Sequence record: OR234014.1
Direction: 5' to 3' (one strand)
Source of the DNA: Staphylococcus phage SAC
Length of the DNA stretch: 64,000 nucleotides
Below are positions 1,465-60,349 of the stretch, piece after piece (within the stretch, counting starts at the first letter, position 1; each line of letters starts with the position of its first letter). Under the pieces are notes generated by a model. That model was not told the DNA's origin. It searched no databases and saw only the letters and a list, made by a program, of their open reading frames with translations. The position numbers and the translations under genes were made by a program.

Positions 1465-2226
1465 TTATTCCCACATATGATTTTGCTTATCTACTTTATT
1501 ATCTTTGATATACCTTTTGGCATTTTGTTCATGATAAGCATTAATTTTAAATTTAACATAATCTTTAAGTTCTGTAAGCTCTCTAGCTACTTCTGAACGT
1601 TCTACCTCTAACCTATTAGCTACAGTAGACACAATAAATGCGTTGTCTTCTTTATCCGTATTAATAAGGAGCTCTTTTAGCAGTTCACTTTGTACTTCAG
1701 TAAATTGTGTATCATCAAAGACATAATTAAGTAATTCATTTTCTTCTAATCCCACATTTAACTCCTGTGTTAAGGACTCTACTGTATAATCTGTTTTACC
1801 TACAAGTTCAGTACGTTTATATTTATTGTTCTTCTTAACATAACTGTTCTGTACTCGTAGTGTTAGTTTAGTTTTAATATACCCTGGAAAATCTACTTTA
1901 CTTTGTATATCATACTCCTTAACTAACTTAATAAACTGCTCATCTATGTATTCCCGTAGCTCTTGTTTCTCAAAGTCATGACTCATACCTCTAGAGTACC
2001 TATGAAATAATGACCATCTAAGGTTCTTATACCTTTTTAAAAGCATATCTAAGTCTCTACCAAAGTCAGTAGGAATACCATCTAAGTCTATAATATATCT
2101 ATTCCCATTATTAACTTTCTTCATAAGGATGTGCTCCCTCAAATACAATCTTAATCCTGTGTACATCATTTGATACATAGATATCTGAGTAATGTATTGT
2201 TTTAGGTACTTTGACTTCAGAACCAT
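1465..2226 (-). CDS. RNA polymerase sigma factor (phage-encoded); true start is probably the internal MKKVNNG at about 2124
   Basis: C-terminal region-4-like helix-turn-helix (NAFIVSTVANRLEVERSEVARELTEL). The longest ORF overlaps the upstream gene by 116 nt, whereas the internal ATG avoids the overlap. Confidence 0.5.
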   Translation of the reverse strand: MVLKSKYLKQYITQISMYQMMYTGLRLYLREHILMKKVNNGNRYIIDLDGIPTDFGRDLDMLLKRYKNLRWSLFHRYSRGMSHDFEKQELREYIDEQFIKLVKEYDIQSKVDFPGYIKTKLTLRVQNSYVKKNNKYKRTELVGKTDYTVESLTQELNVGLEENELLNYVFDDTQFTEVQSELLKELLINTDKEDNAFIVSTVANRLEVERSEVARELTELKDYVKFKINAYHEQNAKRYIKDNKVDKQNHMWE

Positions 2227-2464
2227 TATAACGTACTAAAGAGTAACCTCCTGCCCATCTTGACTCTACATGCTCAATATACATAACTGTAGAATCAGTG
2301 TAAGGAAATCCCGACTCTTCTACAATGATAGGCTCCTTATTATCTCTAGCTTTTTTAAAACGTTCTGCTATTTCAATATAAGGTAAGGGCAATACATCAT
2401 TTGTATTAGCCCTACCTAATGCTTCTTTAACACTATTAATATTTCTATCTATTAGATTATTCAT
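2111..2464 (-). CDS. hypothetical protein
   Basis: ORF of 117 aa in the gene array directly downstream of recA exon 2. Confidence 0.4.
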   Translation of the reverse strand: MNNLIDRNINSVKEALGRANTNDVLPLPYIEIAERFKKARDNKEPIIVEESGFPYTDSTVMYIEHVESRWAGGYSLVRYNGSEVKVPKTIHYSDIYVSNDVHRIKIVFEGAHPYEES

Positions 2465-3479
2465 TTACATCTTCCTTAGTCTCTTTATTAGTAGAGCTAA
2501 GCTCTTCGTAGTAATCTTGTAATGCTTTAAACTCTTCTAATTGAGTAGTGTCTACTTTTGTATTGTTTAAAGGTGCATACTTATGAGGGAAATTCTCGTG
2601 GTAAACTCTACTAAATAATTCTAAGTATAATTCATGGTTGTCCATTAATGTCGGTACCCAATCTTTATCATATTTTTTAATTTCTTCACCATTTAACGTA
2701 ACATAATTACGCCATGTTCCTTTAGTAATTAAACCACGCTCAACGGCTTCTTTATAGATAGTATGATAAGGGTCAACACCGTTTAATTGAATAGTATCTT
2801 CATCAGAACCTACTTCATAACCTGATAATAAATCAACTTCCGCTTTTTGACCAGGTCTAGATAGCTTAGACTTCTTAGTCTCAATACGCATAACATGACC
2901 TTTATACGTAGGTTTACCTGTCATAGCATCATTCTGTTTTAATTCTGATTCTTTACCTTTAGATACTTTAATACGTAAACTAGCACCATGTTCAAAAGCT
3001 CTTCCTCCTGTAGACTTAATAGGGTCATCATAAGGATTACTCATATTTAAATTATCACGTGCTTGGTTAATAACAATTAATCCTGTATTTGTATCATTAA
3101 GCTTAGGTGAAATAGCATTTACTACTTTTTGTGTACTTGTCGCTTTCGTTCCAAGTTTTTTATGGTCTACTCCTGCATCAATTTCATCTTGTGTACGTGT
3201 AGCTCCTAGGGAATCCCAAATGAACAAAATAGGTACGCCTGGTGCTTTCTCATTAAATGTATCAATCCAGTATTCTAACTCTTTACCTACGGTTTCTACT
3301 GATAGTTCAGTAACATTTTTAAGTCTACCTTCACCTGACTGTATTGAGAACAATTTAGATACGTCTACACCTAACTGTTCCATACGTTGGTTATCCGCTG
3401 TTCCTTCAATGTCAATCCAAACTGTAATAACTCCTAATTGTGTTGCTACTCTAGATAAGTGTACTGCAAAAGTCGATTT
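2457..3479 (-). CDS. recA: RecA/UvsX-like recombinase, exon 2 (begins KSTFAVHLSRV..., before the annotated Met)
   Basis: The frame is open from 3479. KST completes the Walker A motif GLTGSG|KST with exon 1. ILFIWDSLGAT is a RecA-like core. The intron ends in G at 3480. Confidence 0.75.
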   Translation of the reverse strand, partial: KSTFAVHLSRVATQLGVITVWIDIEGTADNQRMEQLGVDVSKLFSIQSGEGRLKNVTELSVETVGKELEYWIDTFNEKAPGVPILFIWDSLGATRTQDEIDAGVDHKKLGTKATSTQKVVNAISPKLNDTNTGLIVINQARDNLNMSNPYDDPIKSTGGRAFEHGASLRIKVSKGKESELKQNDAMTGKPTYKGHVMRIETKKSKLSRPGQKAEVDLLSGYEVGSDEDTIQLNGVDPYHTIYKEAVERGLITKGTWRNYVTLNGEEIKKYDKDWVPTLMDNHELYLELFSRVYHENFPHKYAPLNNTKVDTTQLEEFKALQDYYEELSSTNKETKEDVNE

Positions 3480-4839
3480 CAGTTACTACCCCTAGTTTCC
3501 TAGTACTTTAACACTAACTTAATAGTGGGCTTAGACTATATCTTTAATTGCCTGGTATGCAAGTTTTTGTTTTCGGTCTATATGAATATTATTATCTCGA
3601 TATAATGTTTTCATTAATTTTTTAGCTTTTTTACCTGTATAACCTATTCTATAAGAGGTAGAAGTTTTAGATATTGTAGGACATTTAAAACCTAATAAGT
3701 CTTCAATCCAACTACCTACTTCTTTTAAAAATTCAGGATGATTGTTAACTAAAGTTATTGACCATCTATTATTATAACATCCAATAGAACCATCACCATC
3801 AAACAATCCTCTTAAGTAATGTTTCCTTAAATCATAAGGTATGTCTTGTGTTAACCAATCTGTTTTTTTAGTTTTCATAGGTATTATACCATATTTAGCT
3901 AAATCATTACATAGTTTTTCATCGGTAACACTAAAAGTATACGTAGAATTTTCATTTTTTATATAATCTCTTTTTCTATGAGATTCATAAATTTTACTGT
4001 CTGAATTCAATTCTTTTTGAACTCTTTCTACTATTTCTTTATCAATTAACTCTAGTGTTAAGTAACATTGACCTTCTCTTCTATATCTAACACAACCGTC
4101 AGCCATCAATAAACCTAAAATATATGCTTTCTCTTCAGTATCAATTACTTCAAAGAAATCTTTATTAATATTTCTATTAACTCTCCTAGGTTGATAGTAA
4201 GATGTATCAATACCAAAGTCTCTTAATATTTTACTTATCTCTCTTGCATGTGTTGTATAGACTGCTTTTATCTCTGCAATAGTCATAGACTCCTCAGTGT
4301 ACATTCTTAAAATATCTTGTTTTTGTTTACTAGTCCATCTTCTCTTGCTATTTGTGTCAATATTAAACTCATCTAGTACTTTTTTAATTGTAAAGTAATG
4401 TGCATTATACTTTTTTTGTATTTCACTAAATTTCTTACCTTCTTGAAAGGATTTCACTATATCTTGTTTTTCTTCATTAGACCATACTCGTTTTACCATA
4501 TTATACTACTCTCCATTTTAAATAGATTTCGTAGGCAATTCCCACGTACTTCGGTTTCCCTACTCTACTCAGTTACTCACTAATACTTCTCAATATTAGC
4601 TACCTTTTCGATAGTCGTTGAACCTTCTCCATTTTACAGGAGCTTGGATGCTGATTACCTACACTATATAATATAACAGTTTAATAACTCGTTATACCAT
4701 ATAACTCATATACTTGTTATTTTTAACATTCACGCTTACCGTTTCCAGTTACGTTGTAGTTAACAAGTCTTTAAGGCTTCCCAGCAATTCACGTGGATTT
4801 GTAATAACTCATTATAAGCCATTGTGGCTATTTAAGGTA
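3480..4839 (-). mobile_element. Group I intron in recA carrying a LAGLIDADG homing endonuclease gene
   Basis: R element GTTCAACGACTA (plus-strand 4611-4622, reverse complement) and S element AAGATATAGTCT (3526-3537, reverse complement). The 5' exon ends in U (GGT). The internal guide sequence GCCAC pairs with exon AGTGGT. Omega-G lies at 3480. Confidence 0.75.
3531..4499 (-). CDS. LAGLIDADG homing endonuclease (two-motif), intron-encoded
   Basis: Two LAGLIDADG motifs: AYILGLLMADGCV and YLRGLFDGDGSI. Confidence 0.8.
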   Translation of the reverse strand: MVKRVWSNEEKQDIVKSFQEGKKFSEIQKKYNAHYFTIKKVLDEFNIDTNSKRRWTSKQKQDILRMYTEESMTIAEIKAVYTTHAREISKILRDFGIDTSYYQPRRVNRNINKDFFEVIDTEEKAYILGLLMADGCVRYRREGQCYLTLELIDKEIVERVQKELNSDSKIYESHRKRDYIKNENSTYTFSVTDEKLCNDLAKYGIIPMKTKKTDWLTQDIPYDLRKHYLRGLFDGDGSIGCYNNRWSITLVNNHPEFLKEVGSWIEDLLGFKCPTISKTSTSYRIGYTGKKAKKLMKTLYRDNNIHIDRKQKLAYQAIKDIV

Positions 4840-28240: not shown

Positions 28241-29551
28241 CTACTTTCCTAATTCTTTAATTTCAAATTTTTCTTCTTCATATATTTTTCTACGCTCATT
28301 AGAATGTTTATATAAAAACTTATGTGTCATATCATTAAAATCAAATATCTGTGTTGTATTATCTTCTTTCTTTTTACGTAACGCACGACCTACACGTTGT
28401 AGTGTTTGTCGTAAAGATTTACCACCTGCACCTAGGATTAATGAACGAATACCACTGATATCAACACCCTCATCAATAAGGCTTGTAGCAATCATAACTT
28501 TAAGTTTACCATTACGCATTTCATCTAACTTTTGTTTACGCATATCCGACTCTATTTCACCATGTAAAAAGAAATTCTCTACACCCATTTCATTCAACAT
28601 AGTGGATAGTATTTCACCATGCTCAACAAAATTAATAATAATAAGCGTAGCTTTATCTTGATTATACCACTTAGCTGTTAGTTTTGCAATAAGTTTATTT
28701 CTAAACTCGTTATGTACAATACCTTTATTATATGCATCCCTGTAATCCTTAATATTATCTATATCATCAGGGTTAGCAATAGGGATAATATTTATTGTAG
28801 GTCTAGCTGAATAGCCATTCTCGATTAAAAACTCATTAGATGTTCTTACAATAATATCTCCGAATAATGCTTGCATACGCATCCATAGTAGCTCATCTTT
28901 CATGTCTATGGAGCCTGTTAGTGCTATCCTGTATAGTGCATTCTCACAGGACATTAAACTTGTATACCATGAATCTGATTTACTGTGATGTGCTTCATCA
29001 ACTATCATTACAGCTATAGAGTCTAGGAACTCACGCATTTTATGATATTTATCATAGCTCTTTTGATTTTTCTTTCTTACTTCTTTTTGGAAAATAACAT
29101 TATGATTGTTTAATGCCATTAATACTTCAGCATCCGTCTTTGAATTATGATAAATATCTTGAAGTATATCAAGCACATTCTGCTCTACTTTAGTTTTAGG
29201 TGTTGTACTTTCTAATAATAACTTAAGTAACCTTTTTTGATTTTTACCACCTTCAAATTTAGGAAGTATCTCTTTAGCTATCTTTTTACTTAAGTTTACT
29301 TTAGCAGATACTTTTACTCCTTCTGTAGGGTCTTTTAAGTTAGAGTTAACAGTAGGAATCATAACTACAGTTACTTGTTTAACATCAAACTTACCAGAAC
29401 CTACTTTACCTACTGATATATTCAATCGTTCACTTAAACGGTCAGCAGATTGATTAAAAATCTCAGTAGAACTTGTAAAAAAAGCTACACGCTCTCCTTT
29501 TTCTAGTTGTGGTAATAGTTGGTCTATGATACCGCTAGCAACCTCTGTTTT
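28241..29551 (-). CDS. SF2 (DEAH-type) DNA helicase, exon 2 (begins KTEVASG...)
   Basis: DEAH box (MIVDEAHHS) and helicase-C motif (QRVGRALR). The annotated TTG start codon is the end of the intron (omega-G at 29552). Confidence 0.7.
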   Translation of the reverse strand, partial: KTEVASGIIDQLLPQLEKGERVAFFTSSTEIFNQSADRLSERLNISVGKVGSGKFDVKQVTVVMIPTVNSNLKDPTEGVKVSAKVNLSKKIAKEILPKFEGGKNQKRLLKLLLESTTPKTKVEQNVLDILQDIYHNSKTDAEVLMALNNHNVIFQKEVRKKNQKSYDKYHKMREFLDSIAVMIVDEAHHSKSDSWYTSLMSCENALYRIALTGSIDMKDELLWMRMQALFGDIIVRTSNEFLIENGYSARPTINIIPIANPDDIDNIKDYRDAYNKGIVHNEFRNKLIAKLTAKWYNQDKATLIIINFVEHGEILSTMLNEMGVENFFLHGEIESDMRKQKLDEMRNGKLKVMIATSLIDEGVDISGIRSLILGAGGKSLRQTLQRVGRALRKKKEDNTTQIFDFNDMTHKFLYKHSNERRKIYEEEKFEIKELGK

Positions 29552-29798
29552 CAATTATGTTACGATTAGGTTCGTTACTCCTAACCTTCTTGTAGTCTCC
29601 TACAAAGTTCAGACTATATCTTAACCATATCTAATGAGACTTAGGTTCTCCCTGTTTCCAATCACTTGATTGTACATAATAGTCGTTGCACCTTCCTAGT
29701 AATTTATTAAGCTTGGCTCATGATTGTCTCAAATGAGAGAGTTCCCATGAATTAAAGGAGTTACACTTATAATATTTCTACTATAAGGGGCAAAATTT
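29552..29798 (-). mobile_element. ORF-less group I intron in the helicase Walker A codons
   Basis: Exon 1 ends ATNAG (GGT) and exon 2 starts KTEV, restoring GxxxxGKT. R element GTTCAACGACTA (29680-29690 region, reverse complement) and S element GATATAGTCTG (29610-29623, reverse complement). The 5' end resembles the nrdE intron. Confidence 0.7.
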
Positions 29799-30236
29799 AC
29801 CTGCATTGGTAGCTTGCTTACATATACCATTATAATTGACTAAACTATTAAACACAGCTTCATACTGATAGTCACGTAATGTAATCTTACCTACGTTATT
29901 ATCTAGTAGCTGTATTTCATCATCAATATCTTCTTCAGCTAAAAAGCTTTCAGATTTTTCATCAATAATTTCGTATTGAAAGTTATGTCTTGATTGTAAC
30001 TCACCTAGTAATGTTATCATCTTAGGTAACAACCCACTAGGGAATTTGTTCTCAGCATAATCGTAGAAATCCACATAACCATCCCACACACCTCGTTTAA
30101 AAGCTAAGCTATGTTGATAGCCCTCTTTCTTAGCTCCTAACGTTTTATGAACACGCTTAAGTATGATATCTTTAATATACCCGTCACTTTCATCAAAATC
30201 TACATATGTATATATATTCTGTTGTCTTAATTGCAT
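29799..30236 (-). CDS. SF2 helicase, exon 1
   Basis: RDYQYEAV (Q/Ia-like motif) followed by ...KQATNAG (first half of Walker A). The annotated KFCPL-stop tail is intron read-through. Confidence 0.7.
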
Positions 30237-50087: not shown

Positions 50088-50912
50088 CTAGTAATTACGT
50101 TTATATGTGTTTGAGAAAATATCTAAGTCATCTCCAAAAGTAGACTTAATGCCTTTACCTATTTCTTCAGCATCCCTTTTGTCATTTGTTCCTGTAATGC
50201 TAACATTCACAGATACATTATTTTGAGATGCAGTACTTCCTGAAGCACTACTAAGTATCGGGTTTCTTAATACGGACGTATATGATGATGGTATAGCTCC
50301 ACCGCCACCGCCACCTGACTTACCGTATTTGCTTACATAACTTTTAGCGTTATTTACTCGAGTACTCATCATAGCCTCTCCAGCACCCATACGCTCAAAA
50401 CCTTGTGCAAAAGCTTTTGTATTTTTTTCTAAACTACCACTTTTACTCCATCCTGCATTTTTAAGCATATCACTATTTTGACCAGAACTCATTTCTTTCC
50501 ATAAGAAATCTAACTGTGCGTCTAAGTCATTAGACTTCTTACCTTTAGATTTAGCAAAGCTATCAAGGTCTGATTTCCTACTACCTAACCATTGTGCAAT
50601 GCCAAAAGCACCACTAGAGGCGTTCTTTGCATTAGGGTCAAGCCCTGATTCTTGCTTAAGGTTACCCATAACGGCACCTACTTGGTTATCGGATAAACCT
50701 TTACCTTTAAGGAATTTGTAAATCTTACCCGCACCTTCTCCATCTACATCGGAAGCTGAACCCCCTGAGTCAGAACTACTGTCTGAACCTCCTGAGTCTA
50801 GCGCTTTAGCATCTTCTATAATTTGTTGTGCTCTATCTAATAGGTTACTGTAAGTTTTTAAGTTTTTAGTTTCTGATTTATTATTCTTTTCTCTTAGTTG
50901 TTCTGTAGACAT
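50088..50912 (-). CDS. tail lysozyme-like / lytic transglycosylase-like protein
   Basis: GNLKQESGLDPNAKNASSGAFGIAQW is a lysozyme-like motif. The protein is G/S-rich. Confidence 0.5.
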   Translation of the reverse strand: MSTEQLREKNNKSETKNLKTYSNLLDRAQQIIEDAKALDSGGSDSSSDSGGSASDVDGEGAGKIYKFLKGKGLSDNQVGAVMGNLKQESGLDPNAKNASSGAFGIAQWLGSRKSDLDSFAKSKGKKSNDLDAQLDFLWKEMSSGQNSDMLKNAGWSKSGSLEKNTKAFAQGFERMGAGEAMMSTRVNNAKSYVSKYGKSGGGGGGAIPSSYTSVLRNPILSSASGSTASQNNVSVNVSITGTNDKRDAEEIGKGIKSTFGDDLDIFSNTYKRNY

Positions 50913-50970
50913 TTTCTGTTTTTTATTATTTATACCATTTGTTAAAATATATAAGTATTATAATTGTATT

Positions 50971-51840
50971 CTAAAAATTAGATTCTAATAATTGTTTTAA
51001 TTTTCTACCTATTGCTTTCCCTGTTTCATTAGGGTTTTTACTTTTAGGTACTTCTATGTTATATTTAAGATTCTTTGGTTGATGGTCGTTTTTTAGAGCA
51101 TGTCTAGGCATAACATCACTGCCTCCACCTCCGCCACCTATGAACTTGTCTGAACCTTTCATAATACTGGCAATCATAGTATCCCAATTACCTGCTGTTG
51201 CATATTCATGAACACCATTGTTGTGTCTCATATCGTGTAAGTTCTTTTGTCCTTTGTTGTAGAAGTTGTCTCTAATCCATTTAGCACCACCAACAATACC
51301 CAAACCATAGTTAAAACCATTATTAGGATTGTTATCAAAAGCACCTATACCGAACCAGTTACCTTTGTTAGGGTCTCCTCCTTTGGAAAGATTTGATGTT
51401 CCCCAGCCTGTCTCAACAGCACTATGTGCTACTAAATACCTTGGGTCAAGTCCTGACTCTTTACCTGCTTTCATATAAAGCTCACCTAAACCACGCATTT
51501 TAGAATTACTAGGTGCTTGAGACTCAATCCATTTATTTAACATTTCGGCGTTTACACCTTTAGCAGTTTTACCTAAGTCATGCTTAGTTACGTCTTTATC
51601 CGTAAAGTTTTTACCATCAAGGTAGTCAAGTGTTCCTCCTGATGAACTGTCGTTAGAACTACTACCTTTATTTGTTAGGTTATCTGCTAAATGGTCTAAG
51701 AAATGTGAGTATACTGTTACATTTCCTTCTCTAGAATCATTATTCTTTTCTCTTTTTTCTTCTGCTTTTTGCCTGTCTTTACTTTGTGATTTATCATTAA
51801 TACCATAAGTTAAAACATATAAACAATAGTATACTTTCAT
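50971..51840 (-). CDS. N-acetylglucosaminidase-like peptidoglycan hydrolase (start uncertain)
   Basis: AHSAVETGWGTS...NWFGIGAFD is a glucosaminidase-like motif. The hydrophobic N-terminus MKVYYCLYVL may be spurious. Confidence 0.5.
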   Translation of the reverse strand: MKVYYCLYVLTYGINDKSQSKDRQKAEEKREKNNDSREGNVTVYSHFLDHLADNLTNKGSSSNDSSSGGTLDYLDGKNFTDKDVTKHDLGKTAKGVNAEMLNKWIESQAPSNSKMRGLGELYMKAGKESGLDPRYLVAHSAVETGWGTSNLSKGGDPNKGNWFGIGAFDNNPNNGFNYGLGIVGGAKWIRDNFYNKGQKNLHDMRHNNGVHEYATAGNWDTMIASIMKGSDKFIGGGGGGSDVMPRHALKNDHQPKNLKYNIEVPKSKNPNETGKAIGRKLKQLLESNF

Positions 51841-51989
51841 ATATAACCTATCGTATTAGTTATGTATATTTATTTAATAACAAGTTTACCTTACAAAATA
51901 AGAAAGGTTTATATGCAGAAGTAGAATACAAATTTTAATTATTTATATATTTTAACAATGTTTAAATATACACGCTACTGTATATTCTC

Positions 51990-52358
51990 TAGTTATTTCT
52001 AGACACTACCTTTCGGTACGTGCGCAGACTATTTGTTATCCCTATTAGTATAGGGTGAGTATTTTTCTTCCACCAATCACTTGTGGCTTTACTTCCGTCA
52101 CCTATACGGAATAGTCGTTGAACGTGTTCCGTAGACCTTTCAGGTCTTTAGGACTTTCGATGCTATACACCCATTGTACTTCTCCTTAGGATTTAACCTT
52201 AGAGTATCTAACTAATTTTTTCTGATTTCTCAACATTCAAGCCTAGTCTTTCGACTTACTTTGTAGTTTAGTTAGCTTTAGTAGTTTCATAGCAGTTAAC
52301 ACTCGGTACTTACAGATTGCTCTATAAGCAAGGCAATTAGTATATAACTAATTATGTT
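51990..52358 (-). mobile_element. group I intron-like element at the 3' end of the TMP gene
   Basis: R element GTTCAACGACTAT (52111-52123, reverse complement), S-like AATAGTCTGCGC, GAAA-tetraloop hairpins, and a 65-nt block (52216-52280) nearly identical to tail-tube intron 1 (58072-58135). The internal guide sequence GCCTT pairs with exon AAGGT. Confidence 0.5.
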
Positions 52359-55289
52359 ACCTTTTTTATTTTTCACTGTCTCGTCTAATTTAGAAGGGTT
52401 ATCTGGTGTGAAGAAATCTGTTATGCCACCCCATAGTTTACCTACAGGAGAGTCTTGGAATTTATTCTTACCATCTTTATCTCCATTAGACCATAATTTC
52501 CAACCATCACTTGTCATAGAACCTTCCGCTGTTTTCGTAGCATAATCTCTTAAGCCATCTCCATAGCCTAAATTTAACGGGTCTATAATACTTCCTATAG
52601 TATTACCAAATTTAGAAGAAGCTTCTTTAGTATCTCCTTGTATTAAAGAACTACCTATATCAAACGCCGATAGACCTGCACCAATCCAACCTAGCTTACT
52701 TGTAAGACCACCTAGTTTACCAAGACCTCCTGCGTTAGCAGTAGGTGCTTGTGACATAAAACCTAAGTCAGAACCTTTACCGCTAAATTTACCTTTAGCT
52801 TTACCAAAAGCTCCCTTACCTTTGTTCCATGCACCTTTACCTAGGTCTTTGGTTCTTCCCATATATTCACCAAAAGTAAAATCTCTTTTTCCAAAGGTAT
52901 CAAATAAGGTTTTACCCATGCCTTTAGCAGTTTGTCCTGCTCCTTTTGCTTGGTCTTTAAATGGTCGGTCTCCACCTCTAGGGTTATCACCTAGTATAGT
53001 GTCAGCTAAGTTTTTAAGTCCTCCAAAGCGTCCACCACCGTTAGGATTACCACCAGGTTTACCACCACCAGTCTTACCTGTTGAACCTCCTTTACGGTTA
53101 TTAAACCAATCTTTTAGTCCTTTTTGACCTTTACCTAATAAAGAACCACCAGCCATCATGGCAGTAGATTTAGCTAAAGATGCTACAAAGGCAAGTACTG
53201 CTCCTGAAGCTAGGTATAAAGGAGCTGGCAAGCTTGCCATAGCACTATGAACATCTCTAATAGGTTGAGCTAAGTCATAAATATCCTCAGCTTTATCATC
53301 TGTCTTAGCTTTGTTATGGTCATTTCTACCTGCTTTAGACTCGGAATACTTATCCTTATTTTTATCTCCTGCTTTAGAGCCCTCTTGTTCCATGCTCTTA
53401 GCTTTACTAGCTAACTCTTCTTTAGATAGTTTACCTGAGGCGTAAAGATTGTACAACTCATCTGTTTGCTCTTGTGTTAAGTTAGCTCCCATGCTTTCAA
53501 AGCCTTTTTTAGCTATGGCTTGTTTTTCTTTTGTTGTACTTCCTATATTATTAGCTTGGTCAAATATATTAACTAAGTTATTAGGGTCTGATATACCTTT
53601 ATCCATTTGTGCTTGTAAGTCATGCATACCTTCTAATCCTTGGTACTTAGTACCCCATCCCATTGCTAATCTAGTATAAGAATTACCCATACCATTTTTA
53701 ATACCTTGGTCAATACTACTTAAGGCTTGAGCTCCTTGTGCACCTTGTAGACCTTTACTACCTGTACCCGCTACTTGAGCTTGTAGAGAAGTAAGATTAG
53801 ACATTTCTCCTTTAGATAATGTTCTACCTTGTCCTGACTGCTCGGCAATAGTACTTAAAGCTCTTAATTGCTCGTCTTGTCTACCAACCATATCAGATTC
53901 ACGTATACCACCTAAGAAAGCATCTTGCATAGCTTTCATATTATCTGAGTTTACGCCACCTGTATGCATAAGTTGTGACATGGATTGCTGATAAGCTTCT
54001 TGGTCTTGTATACCTAATGAACGACCACCTACAGCTAACTGTTTAGCTCCTTTATACGTATCTGCATCGCTTTTATGTCCTATAGAACTTTCATATGACG
54101 TAGCCATTTTTAGCATGTCAGTTGAATTATAACCAAGCTTATTATCTATTGACAAATCTCCATATGTATTTCTTACTGCGTCTATATCCATATTATCTGA
54201 ATTTTGTCCTAATGATGTTACCATAGGTCTATTTGCCTCGGATAAGGAGGCACCTTTCATATACATACCACCTGCAAGAGCAGTTACTGCCATAGTAGCA
54301 TGTGCACCAATAGATGGTAATCTATCTTGGAACAATTTACCCATTGTTCCTCGTTGCTGTTCTATCTCACGCTGAGCAAACTGTTTTTTAGCACTATTTT
54401 TATAGTAGTTGATTGACTTGTCTAATTCAGCACCTGTTTTTCTATAAACTTCAGAAAGCTTTTCACTTTCATCAATCATCATTTTAATAGAAGCTGATTG
54501 TTTTTTATAATCCTCAGAACTTATTTCACCACGAGCTCTTTTGCCTACTAAATCTTGTTGTTGTTGTCTATAACCTCTATATCTATCTTGGTTTTCTTTT
54601 ATTCTTCTATTGTTAGCTTCTCGTTGCTTTTCAAAAGTGTCTACTTTACCTAATTCAGAACGTACTCTAGCACCTTGGTCATAGGACATTCTATTAGAGC
54701 CTTCAGACCTAGATATATGACCTCTAACCATATTACGATTAGCTCTTAGTTGCTTTGTGTACTCCTTAGCTGAACTGGCATCTTTTACTAATTTATTATA
54801 CTCTTCTGTAACTTGGTTCAGTGTTTTCATTTCTTTTATTCTGTTTGTTATATCTGAGTCTGAACCAATCTTTTGAGATGCTACTTTCTCTAGTTCTGTT
54901 TGTGTATTATTTAGTGTCTTATTAAGTTTACTATATACTTTCTCTACTTCAGGGTCAGGAGCTATACCCTTTGTAATATTATCTGTTTGTATGTCATTTA
55001 AAGCTTTCTTTAGGTCGTTTATATTCTTAGTTACATTCTGTGTAGAACTAATAGCCTCATCCATAGCTTTTGGTGATATTAAAGACTTATCACTTTGTTT
55101 ATCCATAATGTTTTGTACAGATTTTACTTCTTTTGCTATTACTTTTAATTTCTCTAAGAAGTTTGTTAATGGTGCATCTATGTTTTTAGACTCTAACGCA
55201 TCCATGTACATCTCTATAGCTTTTAAACTTTGTTCTAAGCTAGAACTATCACCAGTCAAGACCAACCTATAATCGTCATTCATTGCCAA
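52296..55289 (-). CDS. tail tape-measure protein (the true exon 1 may end at 52359 after ...KNKKG)
   Basis: 997 aa, G-rich, a long alpha-helical protein placed after the tail chaperones. The hydrophobic tail NIISYILIALLIEQSVSTEC is probably intron read-through. Confidence 0.65.
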   Translation of the reverse strand: MAMNDDYRLVLTGDSSSLEQSLKAIEMYMDALESKNIDAPLTNFLEKLKVIAKEVKSVQNIMDKQSDKSLISPKAMDEAISSTQNVTKNINDLKKALNDIQTDNITKGIAPDPEVEKVYSKLNKTLNNTQTELEKVASQKIGSDSDITNRIKEMKTLNQVTEEYNKLVKDASSAKEYTKQLRANRNMVRGHISRSEGSNRMSYDQGARVRSELGKVDTFEKQREANNRRIKENQDRYRGYRQQQQDLVGKRARGEISSEDYKKQSASIKMMIDESEKLSEVYRKTGAELDKSINYYKNSAKKQFAQREIEQQRGTMGKLFQDRLPSIGAHATMAVTALAGGMYMKGASLSEANRPMVTSLGQNSDNMDIDAVRNTYGDLSIDNKLGYNSTDMLKMATSYESSIGHKSDADTYKGAKQLAVGGRSLGIQDQEAYQQSMSQLMHTGGVNSDNMKAMQDAFLGGIRESDMVGRQDEQLRALSTIAEQSGQGRTLSKGEMSNLTSLQAQVAGTGSKGLQGAQGAQALSSIDQGIKNGMGNSYTRLAMGWGTKYQGLEGMHDLQAQMDKGISDPNNLVNIFDQANNIGSTTKEKQAIAKKGFESMGANLTQEQTDELYNLYASGKLSKEELASKAKSMEQEGSKAGDKNKDKYSESKAGRNDHNKAKTDDKAEDIYDLAQPIRDVHSAMASLPAPLYLASGAVLAFVASLAKSTAMMAGGSLLGKGQKGLKDWFNNRKGGSTGKTGGGKPGGNPNGGGRFGGLKNLADTILGDNPRGGDRPFKDQAKGAGQTAKGMGKTLFDTFGKRDFTFGEYMGRTKDLGKGAWNKGKGAFGKAKGKFSGKGSDLGFMSQAPTANAGGLGKLGGLTSKLGWIGAGLSAFDIGSSLIQGDTKEASSKFGNTIGSIIDPLNLGYGDGLRDYATKTAEGSMTSDGWKLWSNGDKDGKNKFQDSPVGKLWGGITDFFTPDNPSKLDETVKNKKGNIISYILIALLIEQSVSTEC

Positions 55290-55342
55290 ACAGTATTCAC
55301 CACCTAATCAAAAAATAAGGGTATTGGTGTTATACCATTACC

Positions 55343-55801
55343 CTACATGTACCAATCATCTACATCTTCTATTGCTTTGTTTATATCTTCTTGTGTTGTT
55401 TCTTTGTTATCAATACCTAAACTTTCATCAAGCTCTTTTTGTTTTTGTCTTATGTGTTCCATCATAGCTAAATGTTGAGTTGTTAATCCCTCGGTTTCAT
55501 CTTCTAACTCAGCTTCAACTCGTCTATCTCTTTCTATCTTTTCTTTCTCACTTAAACTTTTATCTACTTGTGTATTTAAATCATCTAAGTCTAAGAAATC
55601 AGGAACAACATCAAATTCATCTGTCGGCGCTTCGAACCATGATGTGTCTACGTCTTCCGCTTTCATATCATAGTTTTTACCGTCTCTAGCTTCCATCATT
55701 TCTTTTGTATCTAAATTCATGTTAGCTATAATAAACTCTATTTGATAGTCATCTAAATCTTTAAAACGTTGTTCGGTAGGTAGCACATTAAACTCACGCA
55801 T
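55343..55801 (-). CDS. tail assembly chaperone-like acidic protein
   Basis: 152 aa, very acidic, directly upstream of TMP. Confidence 0.4.
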   Translation of the reverse strand: MREFNVLPTEQRFKDLDDYQIEFIIANMNLDTKEMMEARDGKNYDMKAEDVDTSWFEAPTDEFDVVPDFLDLDDLNTQVDKSLSEKEKIERDRRVEAELEDETEGLTTQHLAMMEHIRQKQKELDESLGIDNKETTQEDINKAIEDVDDWYM

Positions 55802-55892
55802 GATAGCCCATAAGTTTCTTGATAAAGGCTCTCTAGCTATATGTGAAAGTCCACCTAACCGTTCTATATCTTCATTTAACTTCTTTACGTTA

Positions 55893-56321
55893 CTAGTAAC
55901 GAAAGGACGTCATAAAGTCTAACCAATCATCCCACATAATAGCAAGTGGAGTTAGGTTATAAATCTCTTCAGGGTCTCTAAATTCTTTAGGTACTTCTAC
56001 CCCTACTTCTTGTAGAGTAGCTAACATCTGATAAGCATTAATAACTTGGTCAGATTGATAAGCATCCATTCCACCTAAGTATGCAGAACGTAAAGCCATG
56101 ATATTACCTTGTTCTCTAGCATTAGGTAATCTAATTTTTACTTTGAATTTTAAATCTAATTCTTCAAAGTTGTATCCTTTCTCCCATACATCATTAACAC
56201 CTTTAATTACTTTGTTAATAACACGCTCTTTATCTTTTCGTTGCTGATATTTTAACTCATCAATTTCTTCAGGTGTCATATCTTTAATATCTTTTTGTTC
56301 TTTTTCCAATTCTTTATCCAT
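55893..56321 (-). CDS. tail assembly chaperone-like protein
   Basis: 142 aa, lying between the tail tube and TMP. Confidence 0.4.
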   Translation of the reverse strand: MDKELEKEQKDIKDMTPEEIDELKYQQRKDKERVINKVIKGVNDVWEKGYNFEELDLKFKVKIRLPNAREQGNIMALRSAYLGGMDAYQSDQVINAYQMLATLQEVGVEVPKEFRDPEEIYNLTPLAIMWDDWLDFMTSFRY

Positions 56322-56409
56322 CCTTTATTATTTTCTCATAATTAATATAACAGCTAACTTATGTTTTTTATACACATACAGTATAACATAATGTGGTTAT
56401 AACTCCAAA

Positions 56410-56718
56410 TTACTTAACATATTCAGCTACTCTTTTTTCAATTTCTTGTAACCTTTGTTCAATTGTTTCACTATTTTTAAGTAAGTAAATGTAGTAATCT
56501 TGAAGTGAGTCATAATATTCAAAATCAATCGTCAAAATCTCTTGACCCTCAAAATACTTTTTAGTGATTTTACCTGCTTGTTCCGTTAAGGTTTTAAACT
56601 TGTCAAGAATTTGATTGATTGCAATAGCAGTTGTCTTACTTGTTAAATCTACATTCTGTGGGAATTTATGTAACTCAATTTTCATTTCTTCATGGATAGC
56701 TCTTAATTTATTTGTCAT
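56410..56718 (-). CDS. hypothetical protein
   Basis: ORF of 102 aa with a promoter upstream. Confidence 0.4.
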   Translation of the reverse strand: MTNKLRAIHEEMKIELHKFPQNVDLTSKTTAIAINQILDKFKTLTEQAGKITKKYFEGQEILTIDFEYYDSLQDYYIYLLKNSETIEQRLQEIEKRVAEYVK

Positions 56719-56748
56719 TTTTTATTCTCCTCTTTATTAATGTAACCT

Positions 56749-56778
56749 TAGTATATATTATGTATTTACTTATGTCAA
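56749..56778 (-). promoter_or_regulatory. sigma-A-type promoter TTGACA-N18-TATACT
   Basis: Reverse complement reads TTGACAtaagtaaatacaataataTATACT, upstream of 56410-56718. Confidence 0.4.
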
Positions 56779-57224
56779 TACTTTATTTTTAAATTTTTAT
56801 CATAATAATCATTTAAATTTAATGTTTTGTGGTTATCTGTGACTCTGTTATAGTACATAGTTACAACTTCACCTGTTTCAACTTCTATAACTAAATATTG
56901 GTAAGATAATTTATTATTTACTTTTACTACATAAGGGTGTCTAACAACTACCCTACGTTGTATTTTGTTATTGTATAATGTTTCATTATATTCTATAATA
57001 TCTAAGTTCTTATTATGTATATAATGAACAAACGCTTTAAAATTTACTGGTTTCTTACATTTACCTTTGAAGTGATTTGTTAACTTAAAGTAATTATTTT
57101 TATTATAAGCCTCTTTTAGTAAGTTCCTACATATAATTATTTCTTGATTAGTCATTTGTTTATAATGCTTCTTTACTTGCCTGTTTTTACTTGTTGTTCT
57201 TCTGCCTGAATAAAAAGTTTTCAC
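56775..57224 (-). CDS. hypothetical basic protein
   Basis: 149 aa, lysine- and asparagine-rich. Confidence 0.35.
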   Translation of the reverse strand: MKTFYSGRRTTSKNRQVKKHYKQMTNQEIIICRNLLKEAYNKNNYFKLTNHFKGKCKKPVNFKAFVHYIHNKNLDIIEYNETLYNNKIQRRVVVRHPYVVKVNNKLSYQYLVIEVETGEVVTMYYNRVTDNHKTLNLNDYYDKNLKIKY

Positions 57225-57248
57225 AGTTCATCATCTCCTTATATAACT

Positions 57249-57278
57249 ATAGTATTACAGTTATTTATAATTGTCAAT
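57249..57278 (-). promoter_or_regulatory. sigma-A-type promoter TTGACA-N18-TACTAT
   Basis: Reverse complement reads TTGACAattataaataactgtaaTACTAT, upstream of 56775-57224. Confidence 0.35.
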
Positions 57279-57398
57279 ACCTTTATGCTTATTTTTTCTA
57301 GAATATTTTGTTTTATCTTTTTTAATTCTTGTTGTTGGTTTAATTTTCCATGTTGCCCTTGAATTACTTACTTTACCTATTGTTTTCCTGTTTGTCAT
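57261..57398 (-). CDS. small basic protein (45 aa)
   Basis: GGAGG RBS six nt upstream of the ATG at 57398. Reads MTNRKTIGKVSNSRATWKIKPTTRIKKDKTKYSRKNKHKGIDNYK. Confidence 0.3.
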   Translation of the reverse strand: MTNRKTIGKVSNSRATWKIKPTTRIKKDKTKYSRKNKHKGIDNYK

Positions 57399-57451
57399 TT
57401 AGTACACCTCCTTTTATTTTTAATTATAATACAGTACTTCTAATAAAACAA

Positions 57452-57487
57452 GTATAAAAAAAGACCTAACTTTTATTGTTAGGTCTT
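57452..57487 (-). terminator. rho-independent terminator after the tail-tube gene
   Basis: Stem AAGACCTAAC/GTTAGGTCTT followed by T7 on the minus strand. Confidence 0.6.
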
Positions 57488-57497
57488 AATACGAAAT

Positions 57498-57524
57498 TTA
57501 AGTTCTAGCCTTATCTGATGCTGT
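57498..57524 (-). CDS. tail tube protein, exon 3 (TASDKART-stop)
   Basis: Follows omega-G at 57525 (...GGGTATAGAGG|ACAGCA). It completes a 142-aa protein. Confidence 0.65.
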   Translation of the reverse strand, partial: TASDKART

Positions 57525-57822
57525 CCTCTATACCCTATCTTTCGATATATTTTAAAGGGAGTAGACTATACCATAATCTTAATGTGTAACTAAGACTCAC
57601 TTATTATAGTCGTTGAAGCTTCCCACTCTCGTAGGCTTGCCTGCGTATCATCTATTTTACTGTACTTAGGGTTTAACCTTATACTATACTAGATATTTTT
57701 TCTGATTTCTCAACATTCAAGCTTACCCTTTCAGGTTACTTTGTAGTTATCTAGTCTTTAAGACTTTCACGCAATTTAAAGTGTTTTCTATGCTTGTCAC
57801 CAAACATAGCCTCTATTAGTTA
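57525..57822 (-). mobile_element. group I intron 2 of the tail-tube gene (no ORF)
   Basis: The 5' end TAACTAATAGAGG resembles intron 1. The internal guide sequence GAGG pairs with exon CCTT. R element GCTTCAACGACTATAA (57585 region, reverse complement). S-like element TATAGTCTAC (57555 region, reverse complement). Confidence 0.65.
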
Positions 57823-57896
57823 AAGGTAGCTAAACTCAATTTCTTCTGTTACAATTTCATTTGTCTGCCAAGTCTCGTTGTAGTTGTTTGCTGAAC
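57823..57896 (-). CDS. tail tube protein, exon 2 (74 nt: C-SANNYNETWQTNEIVTEEIEFSYL)
   Basis: Open frame flanked by intron ends. Joining with exon 1 creates a TGT Cys codon across the splice junction. Confidence 0.65.
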
Positions 57897-58198
57897 CGTT
57901 TATACCCTATCTTTCGATATATTTTAAAGGGACTAGACTATACCATAATCTTAATATGTAACTAAGACTTACCTATTATAGTCGTTGAACCTTCTCCATT
58001 TTACAGGAGCTTGGATGCTAATTACCAATTATGTAGTACTTAGGATTTAACCTTATACCATCTAACTAATTTTTTCTGATTTCTCAACATTCAAGCCTAG
58101 TCTTTCGACTTACTTTGTAGTTTAGTTAGCTTTACGGTGTTCTAGCAATTTAAGGTATTATTCAATGCACATCACTGTACAAGGGGTCTATTTAGTTA
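57897..58198 (-). mobile_element. group I intron 1 of the tail-tube gene (no ORF)
   Basis: The internal guide sequence GACC pairs with exon TGGTT. R element GTTCAACGACTA (57981-57992, reverse complement). GAAA-tetraloop hairpins. The 3' end GGGTATAAACG is identical to the pol intron. Confidence 0.65.
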
Positions 58199-58526
58199 AA
58201 CCATGGTAACTAATAATAACTTGTTTCGTTAAGTTATCTACTACTAAGATATCAATAATATCTTTCTTAAGAATTTCTTCACCAAGTGAAGCATATCCTA
58301 AATCTGCGAAGTTTTCTTTTTTCATACGTAAACGTTCTAGTGTAATTGTACCAGCATATTTTAAGTAAACATGCTCTTGTGGCATAATACTACCAATTTC
58401 GTATACACCAGTAGTTCCGTATTCACGTTGACCTTTAGCAGATTGTGCTCTTCCAACTGGTTTACCTTTTACCATTAGCATAACGGTATTACCAGTATGG
58501 ACAGACTGCTTAGCCTCTGAAGCCAT
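58199..58526 (-). CDS. tail tube protein, exon 1 (109 codons plus 1 nt)
   Basis: MASEAKQSVHTGNTVMLMVKGKPVGRAQS...ISYHG lies directly downstream of the sheath gene. The annotated LTK-stop tail is intron read-through. Confidence 0.7.
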
Positions 58527-58588
58527 ATTAATTCACTCTCCTATTAAATTTAATAGGAGTACCTAAACTAGGTACTCCTTGTCCTAGT

Positions 58589-60349
58589 TTAGGCTCTTAA
58601 TGTTTGTTGTTGGTATACCAAGCTAACAGAAATTTTCTTGAAGCTTCTGATAGGGTATACAACCATTGAGATTCTAGCTTCATTACCCTCGACAATAACT
58701 TGTACGTCTTCAGGTGGGAAGTCTTGAATTTCGTTATCTCGTTTCTTGCGTCCTAAGAATGACTGTACAAAGTCTTTGATAATTGAAGCACTTGTATTGA
58801 TAGTACGAGTACCAATAAAGTTATTTTCAAGCTCAAGTTTTAACTCAGAACATAAGAAGTCATTTGCTTCCCCAACAGCCATTTCTGACTTAACAGGGTC
58901 ATTTTTATCATTAAATGTCGTAACATCGTCTGTTAATCTAAAGAATGTATTAGCTCTATTACGAACATATTGTACGGTGATAATACCGTTTTCATTTAAC
59001 TCATCTAAGTCTAATGATTCATATAATTGGTCTACATTATTAATACGTAGTTGCTTAAAGGTAATAGACTCACCTATAGCTAAACCACTTACCAAACCTC
59101 CGATAGCAGAAGCTACCATATAAGCTGGTACATGTAACTTACGACCATTGTCCATTGTGAATATACCTGAGTTAGCTACTAAAGCAACTCGTGGGCTAGA
59201 TAATGATGATTGACGACCAAATAATTGTTCTTTCGTTTCATTAAATCCTCCACCTAGAATAGCACGCATAGGTTCACCTGCATCAGAACGTTCTTTAACA
59301 AAAGAAGCTACTTCTGCATGAACAGATTGTTTAGAGGATAGTGGTACCATGTAGTATCCACCTTCATGTGCAAATTTTTCGATTTTATCCGCCCATGTAG
59401 CAGGAGGTTCACCATTTGTACCACCTGAAAGTTTTGTTAATTCAAAAGGTGTGATTTCTTGAATTGGGGACACAGCTGTTACAGTAGCAGATTCTTCATG
59501 TGCGTCTACTTCTACGTTTTTAGGTGCTTGTTCAGATACTAATCGTTCAAATGAAACAAGTCCGTTATAGGCTGTTTGTTTCTCTAAATCACCAAATACT
59601 GCTTTTACATACTCAGCTTTATCCTTAATGTTAACATCTGTCATAGGGTCTAATAAGTAAGACTCTAAGTTCTTATCTCCAAAAGGTGATAACTTAGCTT
59701 CAAAATCAGGTAATTGGTTAATATCGTTAATGATGGCATTAGTAGTAGCGTAAGCTCCTCCTGTTAAGTCATAAGACTTAACTTCTGTGCTATTAGCTTT
59801 TAATACTAATCTTTTTGCTTTTTGTGTCTCTTTATCGTGCTCTACAGAAAAAGTAGCTGTACTTTCACTACCTTTATATTTGATAGTGAAGATATTACCA
59901 ATATTATCATATGTTTCATTAAATCTATCATCTTGGAAGATTAAATGTAAACGTAATGAATTACTGATTGTATTTTTTTCTAATCCTACTTGAATGTTGT
60001 TAGCTACGTTACCATAAATCTGTGAAGTAACTTTCAATCCGCCTACTTCAGCTGTAGCTGGTTTAGCATCCTCTACACGCATAGCAAAAATCTTACCTGC
60101 TGTGTATTGTGGATTAGAACCCCAAGCTAATTCAATTGCATCAAGTAATTCACCTGAGCGGAATAGTCTTTTAGCTTGTGCGTAGTTTCTTAATTCATAT
60201 ACGGTATCAGGTTTACCACCTTCAGCTTGTCCAATTAAACATAAAATCTTTTCACTGGAGCTAGCTGATTTACCGATACCTGTACTGTCTACATTAATGA
60301 CTGCATGTGGACGAGTGACAGGTCTTCGTGGAAACGGTTCAACTGCCAT
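58589..60349 (-). CDS. tail sheath protein
   Basis: 586 aa. MAVEPFPRRPVTRP... is strongly similar to Twort-like myovirus sheath proteins. Confidence 0.8.
   Translation of the reverse strand: MAVEPFPRRPVTRPHAVINVDSTGIGKSASSSEKILCLIGQAEGGKPDTVYELRNYAQAKRLFRSGELLDAIELAWGSNPQYTAGKIFAMRVEDAKPATAEVGGLKVTSQIYGNVANNIQVGLEKNTISNSLRLHLIFQDDRFNETYDNIGNIFTIKYKGSESTATFSVEHDKETQKAKRLVLKANSTEVKSYDLTGGAYATTNAIINDINQLPDFEAKLSPFGDKNLESYLLDPMTDVNIKDKAEYVKAVFGDLEKQTAYNGLVSFERLVSEQAPKNVEVDAHEESATVTAVSPIQEITPFELTKLSGGTNGEPPATWADKIEKFAHEGGYYMVPLSSKQSVHAEVASFVKERSDAGEPMRAILGGGFNETKEQLFGRQSSLSSPRVALVANSGIFTMDNGRKLHVPAYMVASAIGGLVSGLAIGESITFKQLRINNVDQLYESLDLDELNENGIITVQYVRNRANTFFRLTDDVTTFNDKNDPVKSEMAVGEANDFLCSELKLELENNFIGTRTINTSASIIKDFVQSFLGRKKRDNEIQDFPPEDVQVIVEGNEARISMVVYPIRSFKKISVSLVYQQQTLRA

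Follow-up and report, generated by a model that had tools for sequence, protein, structure and literature searches.

Analysis of a 64,000-nucleotide (nt) stretch of Staphylococcus phage SAC (sequence record OR234014.1), referred to here as the window, suggests that the tape-measure protein (TMP) gene is interrupted towards its 3′ end by an element that derives from a group B (IS607-type) IStron and lacks open reading frames (ORFs). In this element a group I ribozyme (IA2, Twort-like) would be fused to transposon ends and inserted after a GG in the silviavirus TMP gene, and one 5′ and two alternative 3′ splice sites would give two TMP isoforms; the probability of this reading is put at roughly 0.6. 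Its parts differ in strength. It is very probable that the element is a genuine, structurally maintained group I/IStron-type intron, and likely that the intron extends past position 51990 and splices to the first 3′ site (site A). The chances that both 3′ sites are used appear even, and it is tentatively proposed, with a slightly lower probability, that one IStron-derived ribozyme makes a mutually exclusive choice of 3′ exon, joining the body of the TMP (TMP-N) to either a glucosaminidase or a lysozyme. Splicing itself is deduced from the sequence. The element is classed as an IStron derivative despite the missing tnpA and tnpB because IStrons without ORFs are known.

The window comes from a Stau2/Romulus/SSP49-like Staphylococcus myophage of the genus Silviavirus. 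Over 601 bases surrounding the element, identity to the best-matching 30 records, all Silviavirus, is 98.7–99.8 %. An earlier note on this DNA had described an intron-like ribozyme element at 51990–52360, at the stop codon of the TMP gene. The gene, its downstream modules and the ribozyme element lie on the minus strand throughout, and in what follows a caret marks a splice junction.

The interrupted gene and its two C-terminal modules

Public records show here an ORF for a 'tail lysin' or tape measure that stops at 52296, then ORFs at 51840–50971 and 50912–50088, with no intron annotated; the Silviavirus and Sepunavirus annotations examined have either three separate ORFs or a blank region. 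The TMPs of phage K (1351 amino acids, aa) and Twort (1269 aa) are continuous, running from ...KDKKKG through a linker (…MTAEQLREKNN…) into a C-terminal lysozyme domain, and that of Listeria phage AG20 is continuous with a glucosaminidase domain. Homology between the window and phage K breaks at ...KNKKG (52361–52359), resumes weakly in ORF289 and reaches 65 % identity in ORF274. The coding segments are as follows.

52360–55289, minus strand: 5′ exon TMP-N, 977 codons, ending ...VKNKKG with last bases GG at 52361–52360 (ORF, and colinearity with the K, Twort and AG20 TMPs)
50971–51802, minus strand: proposed alternative 3′ exon A, ORF289 or 'tail tip protein', G-INDKSQSK..., 277 aa, glucosaminidase (PF01832, E 3.5e-11)
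50088–50934, minus strand: proposed alternative 3′ exon B, ORF274, G-INNKKQKMSTEQLREKNN..., 282 aa, phage tail lysozyme (PF18013, Phage_lysozyme2, E 2e-31)

Modules A and B are paralogous, with a common linker and a common C-terminal tail motif. Both are present in every intron-bearing genome examined (Silviavirus, Sepunavirus and the Alsa/PG27 group) and one is present in every intronless genome examined. Module homology starts at an in-frame glycine codon, GGT (51804–51802 in A, 50936–50934 in B), from which the frame is open for 276–295 aa in 13 out of 14 cases. For at least 90 codons from this glycine, module A of 80B, Quidividi, PG27 and Alsa has no ATG, GTG or TTG; the last two of these also have a stop two codons before the module. 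Likewise, module B has no ATG for 91 codons in CF5 and no start for 58 codons in PG27, and its ATG in the window has no Shine-Dalgarno sequence. Because the frame from the glycine codon is open and usable starts are absent in several genera, the modules behave as 3′ exons. When conceptually joined to TMP-N, module A gives a TMP-A of 1253 aa that aligns across the junction with the AG20 TMP in one high-scoring segment pair (E 2e-74), and module B gives a TMP-B of 1258 aa that does so with the TMPs of K (E 2e-170) and Twort.

An odd hydrophobic tail on the TMP ORF, NIISYILIALLIEQSVSTEC, directly after ...KNKKG, had been remarked upon in the earlier note, with a comparison of TMP C-termini put forward as a check. 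The tail has no protein homology that could be found and is explained as read-through into the intron. No continuous homologue aligns through NIISYILIALL, and the K, Twort and AG20 TMPs go colinearly into the ORFs that had been taken as a separate hydrolase gene, an outcome that favours an intron. With Kayvirus TMPs, the match ends just before the tail when the query includes it, and spans the junction once the tail is replaced by the downstream ORF.

Ribozyme core and 5′ junction

The features of the intron from its 5′ end to the end of the core, all on the minus strand, are listed below.

52330–52363: P1, in which exon AAGG (52363–52360) pairs with guide CCUU (52333–52330) and intron U52359 faces G52334 (exon/guide covariation)
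52353–52335: P1-extension hairpin AAUUAGU/ACUAAUU (stem covariation)
51956–52359: ribozyme core (RNAalifold on 10 relatives, and pair count with the P7 pseudoknot)
52150–52280: P4-P6 block common to tail-tube introns 1 and 2 (sequence similarity)
52116–52112 with 52031–52027: P7, R element GACUA pairing with S element UAGUC (invariant in 10 out of 10 aligned sequences)
52022–52004: P9, a hairpin with a GAAA loop
52003–51988: hairpin UCUAG-AAAUAA-CUAGA (covarying stem)
51987–51964: hairpin with GUAGCG loop (6 out of 9 pairs covary)
After the GUAGCG-loop hairpin: core tail UAAACAUUG

Full-length relatives of the TMP element at 72–78 % identity are found in many phages. For the fold, 10 full-length relatives from six insertion sites were aligned: the TMP copies of the window, MR003, CF5, 80B and PG27, together with the DH2 portal, Stab23 tail-tube, Enterococcus phage Efe143 tail-tube, PT94 TMP and F1 major tail gene copies. 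RNAalifold returned 86 pairs, 53 of which have compensatory double changes. When the P7 pseudoknot is included (87 pairs, 53 with double changes), 97.0 % of cells are paired, against 77 % in column shuffles, none of 500 of which reached 97.0 %; sliding the pairing partners by 1–3 columns as a control left 36–44 % paired. The order of helices (P2, P3, P4-P6, P7, P7.1, P7.2, P3′, P8, P7′, P9) is that of the IA2 architecture. P7 and the junction sequences are invariant, and a compensatory change is also present within the TMP copies, P9 being ACC/GGU in the window versus AGG/CCU in MR003. The UCUAG/CUAGA stem has the compensated variants CUAGG/CCUAG, CUUGG/CCAAG, UGUG/CACA, AGGC/GCCU, CAUGG/CCAUG and UGUGG/CCACA in relatives. 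The conserved structure runs 45 nt past this hairpin and then into an inverted-repeat (IR) stem, and a G is present at every inferred 3′ end.

Since the fold is kept by compensatory changes across the 10 relatives, the ribozyme is not a decayed relic, which the earlier note had offered as an alternative; its preferred view, a group I ribozyme-type intron rather than plain intergenic sequence, agrees with the conserved fold. The R element and GAAA hairpins that it had picked out are present, including P9, and the R element has its S partner at 52031–52027. The proposed 3′ limit at 51990, with a ...CTAG^AAATAA junction, has to be abandoned, as it cuts into the covarying hairpin at 52003–51988 and further structure follows. 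The micro-exon of one to three codons suggested at 51998–51993 falls inside the same hairpin.

At the 5′ end, the GCCUU guide (52334–52330) facing exon AAGGU had been correctly located; the exact position of the 5′ junction needs correction, as the exon ends with the GG at 52360 and the U belongs to the intron. Exon and guide covary over the six insertion sites (AAGG/CCUU, GAGG/CCUU, GCAG/CUGU, GAG/CUC, AGAG/CUCU), as does the P1-extension stem (AUUAGU/ACUAAU, GAUAGU/ACUAUU, AUUGU/ACAAU). At the TMP insertion junction, the window, MR003 and CF5 read AAGG^UAAC, 80B reads GAGG^U and PG27 reads AAGG^U. Exon colinearity with intronless alleles places G, not U, at the last 5′ exon position, with U at +1. 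The same holds in other host genes. In the DH2 portal gene, GAGG^UAAC...UUACGG^CAGAC is compared with the intronless Twort AAT GAA GCC GAC (NEADPG); in the Efe143 tail tube, GCAG^UAAG...AACUG^UUCACA is set against a continuous ...STQFTYL in 25 out of 25 records among the matches listed; and in the Stab23 tail tube, UUGAG^AAAC...AAUCG^UUUUCG is compared with EIEFSYL of phage K. In the PT94 TMP and F1 major tail genes, the frame stays open only with an exon that ends in G. In all five, the exon-final G is paired to the guide and the U opposite the guide G is intronic. A canonical junction (exon ...GGU, intron end ...UGG) was rejected, as it gives GGU UAU UAA, which is out of frame and runs into a stop, and is off by one in the five other host genes in the same way.

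Group B (IS607-type) IStrons are inserted at GG-ending targets, have G as the last 5′ exon base and have the U-G pair shifted by one base pair (bp); their IA2 core has P7.1, P7.2 and an extended P9, their terminus is ...CGG, an IR stem of 15–34 bp with more than 80 % AU encloses the IS genes, and ORF-less variants occur (PMC4227781). For CboIStron, the junction was verified by reverse transcription PCR, and the sequenced spliced product equals the excised DNA joint TGGG^...CGG^ (bioRxiv 10.1101/2023.11.20.567912). The G at −1 in the TMP element is the documented group B IStron exception rather than a canonical group I junction, and the 5′ splice site is placed at 52360^52359 because the rule of this subfamily puts the exon end at GG.

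Inverted repeats and two candidate 3′ splice sites

Beyond the core lie one 5′ IR arm and two 3′ IR arms, each of the latter followed by a candidate splice site (all on the minus strand).

51922–51956: 5′ IR arm GUUAAAAUAUAUAAAUAAUUAAAAUUUGUAUUC, reverse-complementary to 51827–51809 and 50973–50927 and kept in Silvia-, Sepuna- and Alsa/PG27-type phages
51827–51921: loop of the IR stem in its module-A form, holding promoter-like sites annotated in Romulus and ATG 51840 of ORF289
51803–51826: 3′ IR arm A and proposed 3′ splice site A, UUGUUUAUAUGUUUUAAC-UUAUGG^U, junction 51803^51802 (motif and spacing conservation)
50935–50973: 3′ IR arm B and proposed 3′ splice site B, ...CUUAUAUAUUUUAAC-AAAUGG^U, junction 50935^50934 (complementarity and duplex energy)

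The motif TATRYTTTAAYNNNNGG (UUAUAURUUUUAAC-N4-GG) occurs exactly only before module A and at 50951–50935 in the 64 kb, and each of the two modules of CF5, MR003, 80B, Quidividi, PG27 and Alsa is preceded by this motif at the same spacing. Arm B starts at the module-A stop codon. The segment 51968–51922 is complementary to IR-B at 84 % over 49 nt and to IR-A at 89 % over 19 nt. In the window, the 5′ arm is predicted to pair with 51826–51809 at −20.6 kcal/mol and with 50973–50941 at −23.1 kcal/mol; across the TMP copies the duplexes range from −20 to −27 kcal/mol and in DH2 reach −32, against −8 to −11 (standard deviation about 2.5) with shuffled partners. The outer helix is CUUAUAA/UUAUAAG in DH2 versus UAUAUAA/UUAUAUA in the TMP copies, both partners changing together. 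The G at 51956, the first base of the 5′ arm, is homologous to the terminal G of the ORF-less relatives. In these, the intron ends at that tail G (AAAUCG^UUUUCG in Stab23, AAACUG^UUCACA in Efe143); in the TMP element and DH2 it opens a long AU-rich helix.

No tnpA or tnpB ORF is present in the 95-nt IR loop of the window. The DH2 portal gene (vB_SpsM-DH2, OM373548.1) holds a full IStron of the same family at 2473–4370 of the stretch examined, the Twort allele being intronless. Its equivalent IR loop contains a sigma-70-like promoter, a ribosome-binding site (RBS) and a gene for a 409-aa TnpB with OrfB_IS605 and Cas12f1-like TNB domains (PF01385 and PF07282, each at about E 5e-21). We know of no earlier report of a TnpB-bearing IStron in a Staphylococcus phage.

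The proposed mechanism is one of competition. P1, formed by exon AAGG and guide CCUU, would present the 5′ splice site 52360^52359. Past the core, the lone 5′ IR arm (51956–51922) could pair with either 3′ arm, and the duplex so formed would dock the terminal G, which lies six bases further on (51803 or 50935), in the guanosine site. Use of site A (51803^51802) would remove an intron of 557 nt and ligate ...AAA AAA GG^U AUU AAU..., giving TMP-A with the glucosaminidase; use of site B (50935^50934) would remove 1425 nt, module A included, and ligate ...GG^U AUA AAU..., giving TMP-B with the lysozyme. Each transcript would yield one isoform, the choice being made as the 3′ arms compete for the 5′ arm. 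The predicted cDNA junctions are ...GTGAAAAATAAAAAAGG^TATTAATGATAAATCA for A and ...GTGAAAAATAAAAAAGG^TATAAATAATAAAAAACAG for B, with predicted junction peptides TVKNKKGINDKSQSK and TVKNKKGINNKKQK; in Sepunavirus SEP1, ...AGAGG would be joined to TAAGAAGAAGG (A) or to CATACTAGGAG (B). In an IS607-type IStron, 18 nt at the 3′ end are enough for splicing and, when this determinant is duplicated, the ribozyme uses the extra copy in vivo as an alternative 3′ site (PMC13521648); for this reason use of two sites is mechanistically plausible.

Several observations weigh against this reading. An Infernal scan of 50500–59500 with RF00028, which the earlier note had recommended, left the TMP element unscored at the gathering score and even at E ≤ 10; the tail-tube introns of the window were likewise missed in this interval. 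Among the TMP copies the 5′ IR arm does not vary, and the case for IR covariation comes from the outer helix and from DH2. The 3′ terminus of the TMP copies is UGG (GGG in MR003-B), and the CGG typical of group B IStrons is absent from them, whereas DH2 ends in ACGG. In the window, module A has the in-frame ATG at 51840 with a weak AGG, and promoters predicted with MEME in Romulus lie upstream; module B has an ATG eight codons past the glycine. It is possible that the modules are translated independently in S. aureus silviaviruses. The TTG of module B in CF5 overlaps the end of module A, and in Alsa_1/2/3 module B is out of frame with its glycine codon by one missing A (A6 versus A7 in PG27, which is in frame). 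A search for the junction peptide in a collection of 5.8 billion proteins returned nothing usable. In the Alsa records, nearby genes are also fragmented; the frameshift looks like a homopolymer sequencing error, and could also be real decay.

Splicing to site A alone is unlikely. TMP-N would then always receive the glucosaminidase, module B would be a separate gene, read from a weak start or by coupling to the module-A stop, and IR-B would be a recombination relic of module stacking. Site A is the proximal one and the first to be transcribed; the window, MR003 and 80B offer an ATG for module B, CF5 has the overlapping TTG, and the Alsa frameshift points the same way. However, IR-B and its GG are found at the same spacing in four lineages, with pairing as strong as that of IR-A. 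In addition, the codons from the glycine to the first module-B ATG are open and homologous to the K/Twort linker, and the starts available to module B are poor, as given above for the window, PG27 and CF5. Splicing to site B alone, in which the 1425-nt intron would restore a K-like TMP and module A would be IR-loop cargo in the tnpB position with its own loop promoter and ATG 51840, is improbable. The DH2 loop does carry a promoter, RBS and gene, the Romulus promoters are predicted at about 51896–51855, upstream of the window ATG, and the B stem is the longer stem in the window. Yet module A is startless for at least 90 codons in 80B, Quidividi, PG27 and Alsa while its N-terminal linker is conserved, PG27 and Alsa have the stop two codons upstream, module A has a full 3′ IR and GG of its own, and the AG20 TMP is continuous with an A-type module.

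Two further explanations dispense with the modules as exons. That the intron is dead, with no splicing, a TMP-N that ends in the tail ...NIISYILIALLIEQSVSTEC and modules translated separately, is very unlikely. RF00028 is silent and public annotations call three separate ORFs, but the TMP copies differ from one another by compensatory changes, neither P7 nor the junction sequences vary, and the read-through tail is not conserved as protein, being cut short by an early stop in CF5 (after ...NIISYKLIALLVG), 80B, Alsa_2 and PG27; sister elements, moreover, interrupt essential portal and tail-tube genes, which would be unworkable unspliced. An intron ending at ...CUAG (51999), with a micro-exon AAA-TAA adding Lys and a stop to a stand-alone TMP-N and ordinary genes downstream, is barely credible. 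A G does occur at 51999, a short way downstream of P9, and in-frame AAA TAA follows it if the exon ends GGU; under the rule that the exon ends GG the frame is instead GGA AAU AAC UAG. UCUAG/CUAGA is moreover the stem of a covarying hairpin with AAAUAA as its loop, the same hairpin occurs in the Stab23 tail-tube intron, where the 3′ splice site follows the next hairpin, and conserved structure continues for 45 nt before the IR stem. The modules that would be ordinary genes are without start codons in other genera. The preferred reading is that of one 5′ and two alternative 3′ sites.

Other candidate mechanisms were rejected. A +1 frameshift or slippage on the A-run at AAA AAA GGU is ruled out, as CF5 and 80B have no slippery run, and ribosomal bypassing from GGU to GGU is ruled out by a gap of at least 190 nt. 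An inversion of the DNA at the inverted repeats is ruled out, as both modules are co-oriented with TMP-N and an invertase is absent. Downstream in-frame codons ending in G were considered as other 3′ sites and none are conserved between phages. The TATRYTTTAAYNNNNGG motif is not a general promoter, given its two exact occurrences in 64 kb.

Vertical descent or homologous exchange is suggested by the presence of the TMP element at one site in several genera. From the IR arm up to where module A begins (51998–51780), the sequence is 100 % identical in 45 out of the 46 S. aureus silviaviruses listed, with two at 99.5 % and 98.6 %, and this identity holds even where the ribozyme core is only 91 % identical, with indels (MR003 and the CIFT phages). 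This could be due to stronger constraint or to recent exchange.

Related elements, known systems and significance

The earlier note had also reported that the block at 52216–52280 is nearly identical to 58072–58135, in tail-tube intron 1, and similar to 57701–57765. All 63 overlapping positions of the first pair are identical. More widely, 52280–52150 matches intron 1 (58134–58005) at 87.8 % over 131 nt (E 8e-42), and intron 2 (57769–57665) matches at 81 % over 107 nt. The 63 identical bases sit inside introns that are otherwise about 75–88 % alike and lie 6 kb apart, and the claim that a ribozyme block was exchanged between the two genes fits this identity; the identity suggests that the TMP intron and tail-tube intron 1 recently underwent gene conversion in their P5 region. 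The P4-P6 block also has direct blastn matches to elements of Clostridium botulinum phages c-st and D-1873.

The tail-tube gene itself (start 58526) has two group I introns, at 58198–57897 and 57822–57525 on the minus strand, which are unannotated in the Romulus and KSAP7 records; these call exon 1 only, naming its 112-aa product a 'capsid' or 'tail tube' protein. The joined exons rebuild a 142-aa protein colinear with the tail tube of phage K (HG-C-SANNYNETW...EFSYL-TASDKART). The canonical U at −1 is found in tail-tube intron 1 of the window and also in the orf142 introns of the Twort sequence.

Further introns were observed in other phages and elsewhere in the window. In the tail-tube gene of Enterococcus phage vB_EfeBG-143 (Efe143), the family member occupies 1450–1837 of the stretch examined, with a short unannotated 3′ exon, FTYLTSAKVK and a stop, directly after it and then a free-standing HNH gene (ORF 1955–3061). 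The 5′ region of the PT94 TMP gene (1380–1872 of the stretch examined) seemingly has two tandem group I introns with a 19-nt exon, GGTTCAGCGATGTCTAAGG, between them; the annotated TMP coding sequence (CDS) begins only past the second. The sole RF00028 match in the window (91 bits) is at 29589–29808, minus strand, between ORFs 29781–30236 and 28241–29554, which resemble the halves of a helicase gene; a split helicase is known in Romulus and Remus. A further group I-like element negative for RF00028 lies at about 4880–4560, minus strand, after ...GLTGSG in a RecA-like ORF, with a guide region ACCUUAAAUAGCCAC, a P5-like block and an R element GGUUCAACGACUAU. Romulus and Remus are reported to have an intron in a repair-protein gene, and this is probably the same one.

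The introns published for Romulus, Remus and KSAP7 lie in the terminase, portal, helicase, ribonucleotide reductase, repair-protein and polymerase genes, and those of the TMP and tail tube are not among them. For the Sepunaviruses Quidividi, Terranova and Twillingate, 'introns' in the TMP were noted, their boundaries were not determinable by the authors and the CDS was left unannotated (PMC6597688). That element corresponds to the one in the window, with 74 % identity and a shared insertion site, and was described there without boundaries, family assignment or an alternative-exon model. Group I introns are also present in TMP genes of Bacillus cereus-group prophages, at insertion sites that differ from that of the window (PMC2504315). 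A literature search for a paper tying IStrons to Staphylococcus phages found none.

The closest systems are the group B IStrons, namely BcISt1, CbISt1-4 (including those of phages c-st and D-1873) and CboIStron (PMC4227781; bioRxiv 10.1101/2023.11.20.567912). They share with the TMP element a GG-ending target, the exon-final G, the intronic junction U facing the guide G, an IA2 core with P7.1, P7.2 and extended P9, an AU-rich IR stem of 15–35 bp around the cargo position, a ...GG 3′ end and the existence of ORF-less variants. The TMP element differs in lacking tnpA and tnpB, in ending with UGG rather than CGG, in its host, a Staphylococcus phage of the Herelleviridae, and in having the 3′ IR and splice determinant twice, each before a different paralogous exon, which is undescribed for IStrons. 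The group I introns of Twort orf142, the tail-tube gene, are reportedly the subject of work by Landthaler and Shub in 1999 and by Golden et al. in 2005, the I2 ribozyme having been crystallised. They share the host-phage subfamily, the IA2 architecture and the R and S elements, and the tail-tube introns of the window are of this kind; unlike the TMP element, they have the canonical U at −1, have no IR stem and end soon after P9 or P9.1. The T4 sunY (nrdD) intron is said to have a remote 3′ splice junction (Michel and co-workers, Genes Dev, 1992). There too a long insertion lies beyond the core, and long-range pairing of a 3′-terminal segment returns the 3′ site; that intron differs in that it has only one 3′ splice site, its 5′ junction is canonical and its cargo is a homing-endonuclease ORF. 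Group I ribozymes that choose between competing splice sites are also seen in the exon skipping of Twort orf142 and the SIOphi polymerase (PMC11878797) and in engineered duplicate determinants (PMC13521648). Those cases are skipping or artificial constructs, whereas here two natural 3′ sites would yield two full-length proteins with different enzymatic domains.

The intron class was already known; what is new are the exact boundaries, the family assignment and, as a proposal, a 3′ determinant present in two copies, each serving an alternative lysin exon. For detection, RF00028 overlooks this whole group of introns. The group B IStron rule (the exon ends in G, then an IR stem, then GG) gives exact junctions that can be tested and restores a full-length TMP. 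Introns of IStron type are seen in the portal, tail-tube, major tail and TMP genes, that is, in structural genes of Staphylococcus and Enterococcus phages, one copy with TnpB. If both 3′ sites are used, phages that are candidates for therapy would load two peptidoglycan hydrolases on the tape measure from one gene by means of a ribozyme, a mechanism undescribed for phages. If true, this would be natural, functional alternative splicing that gives two protein isoforms in a bacteriophage, with a domesticated transposon end acting as the splice-site selector.

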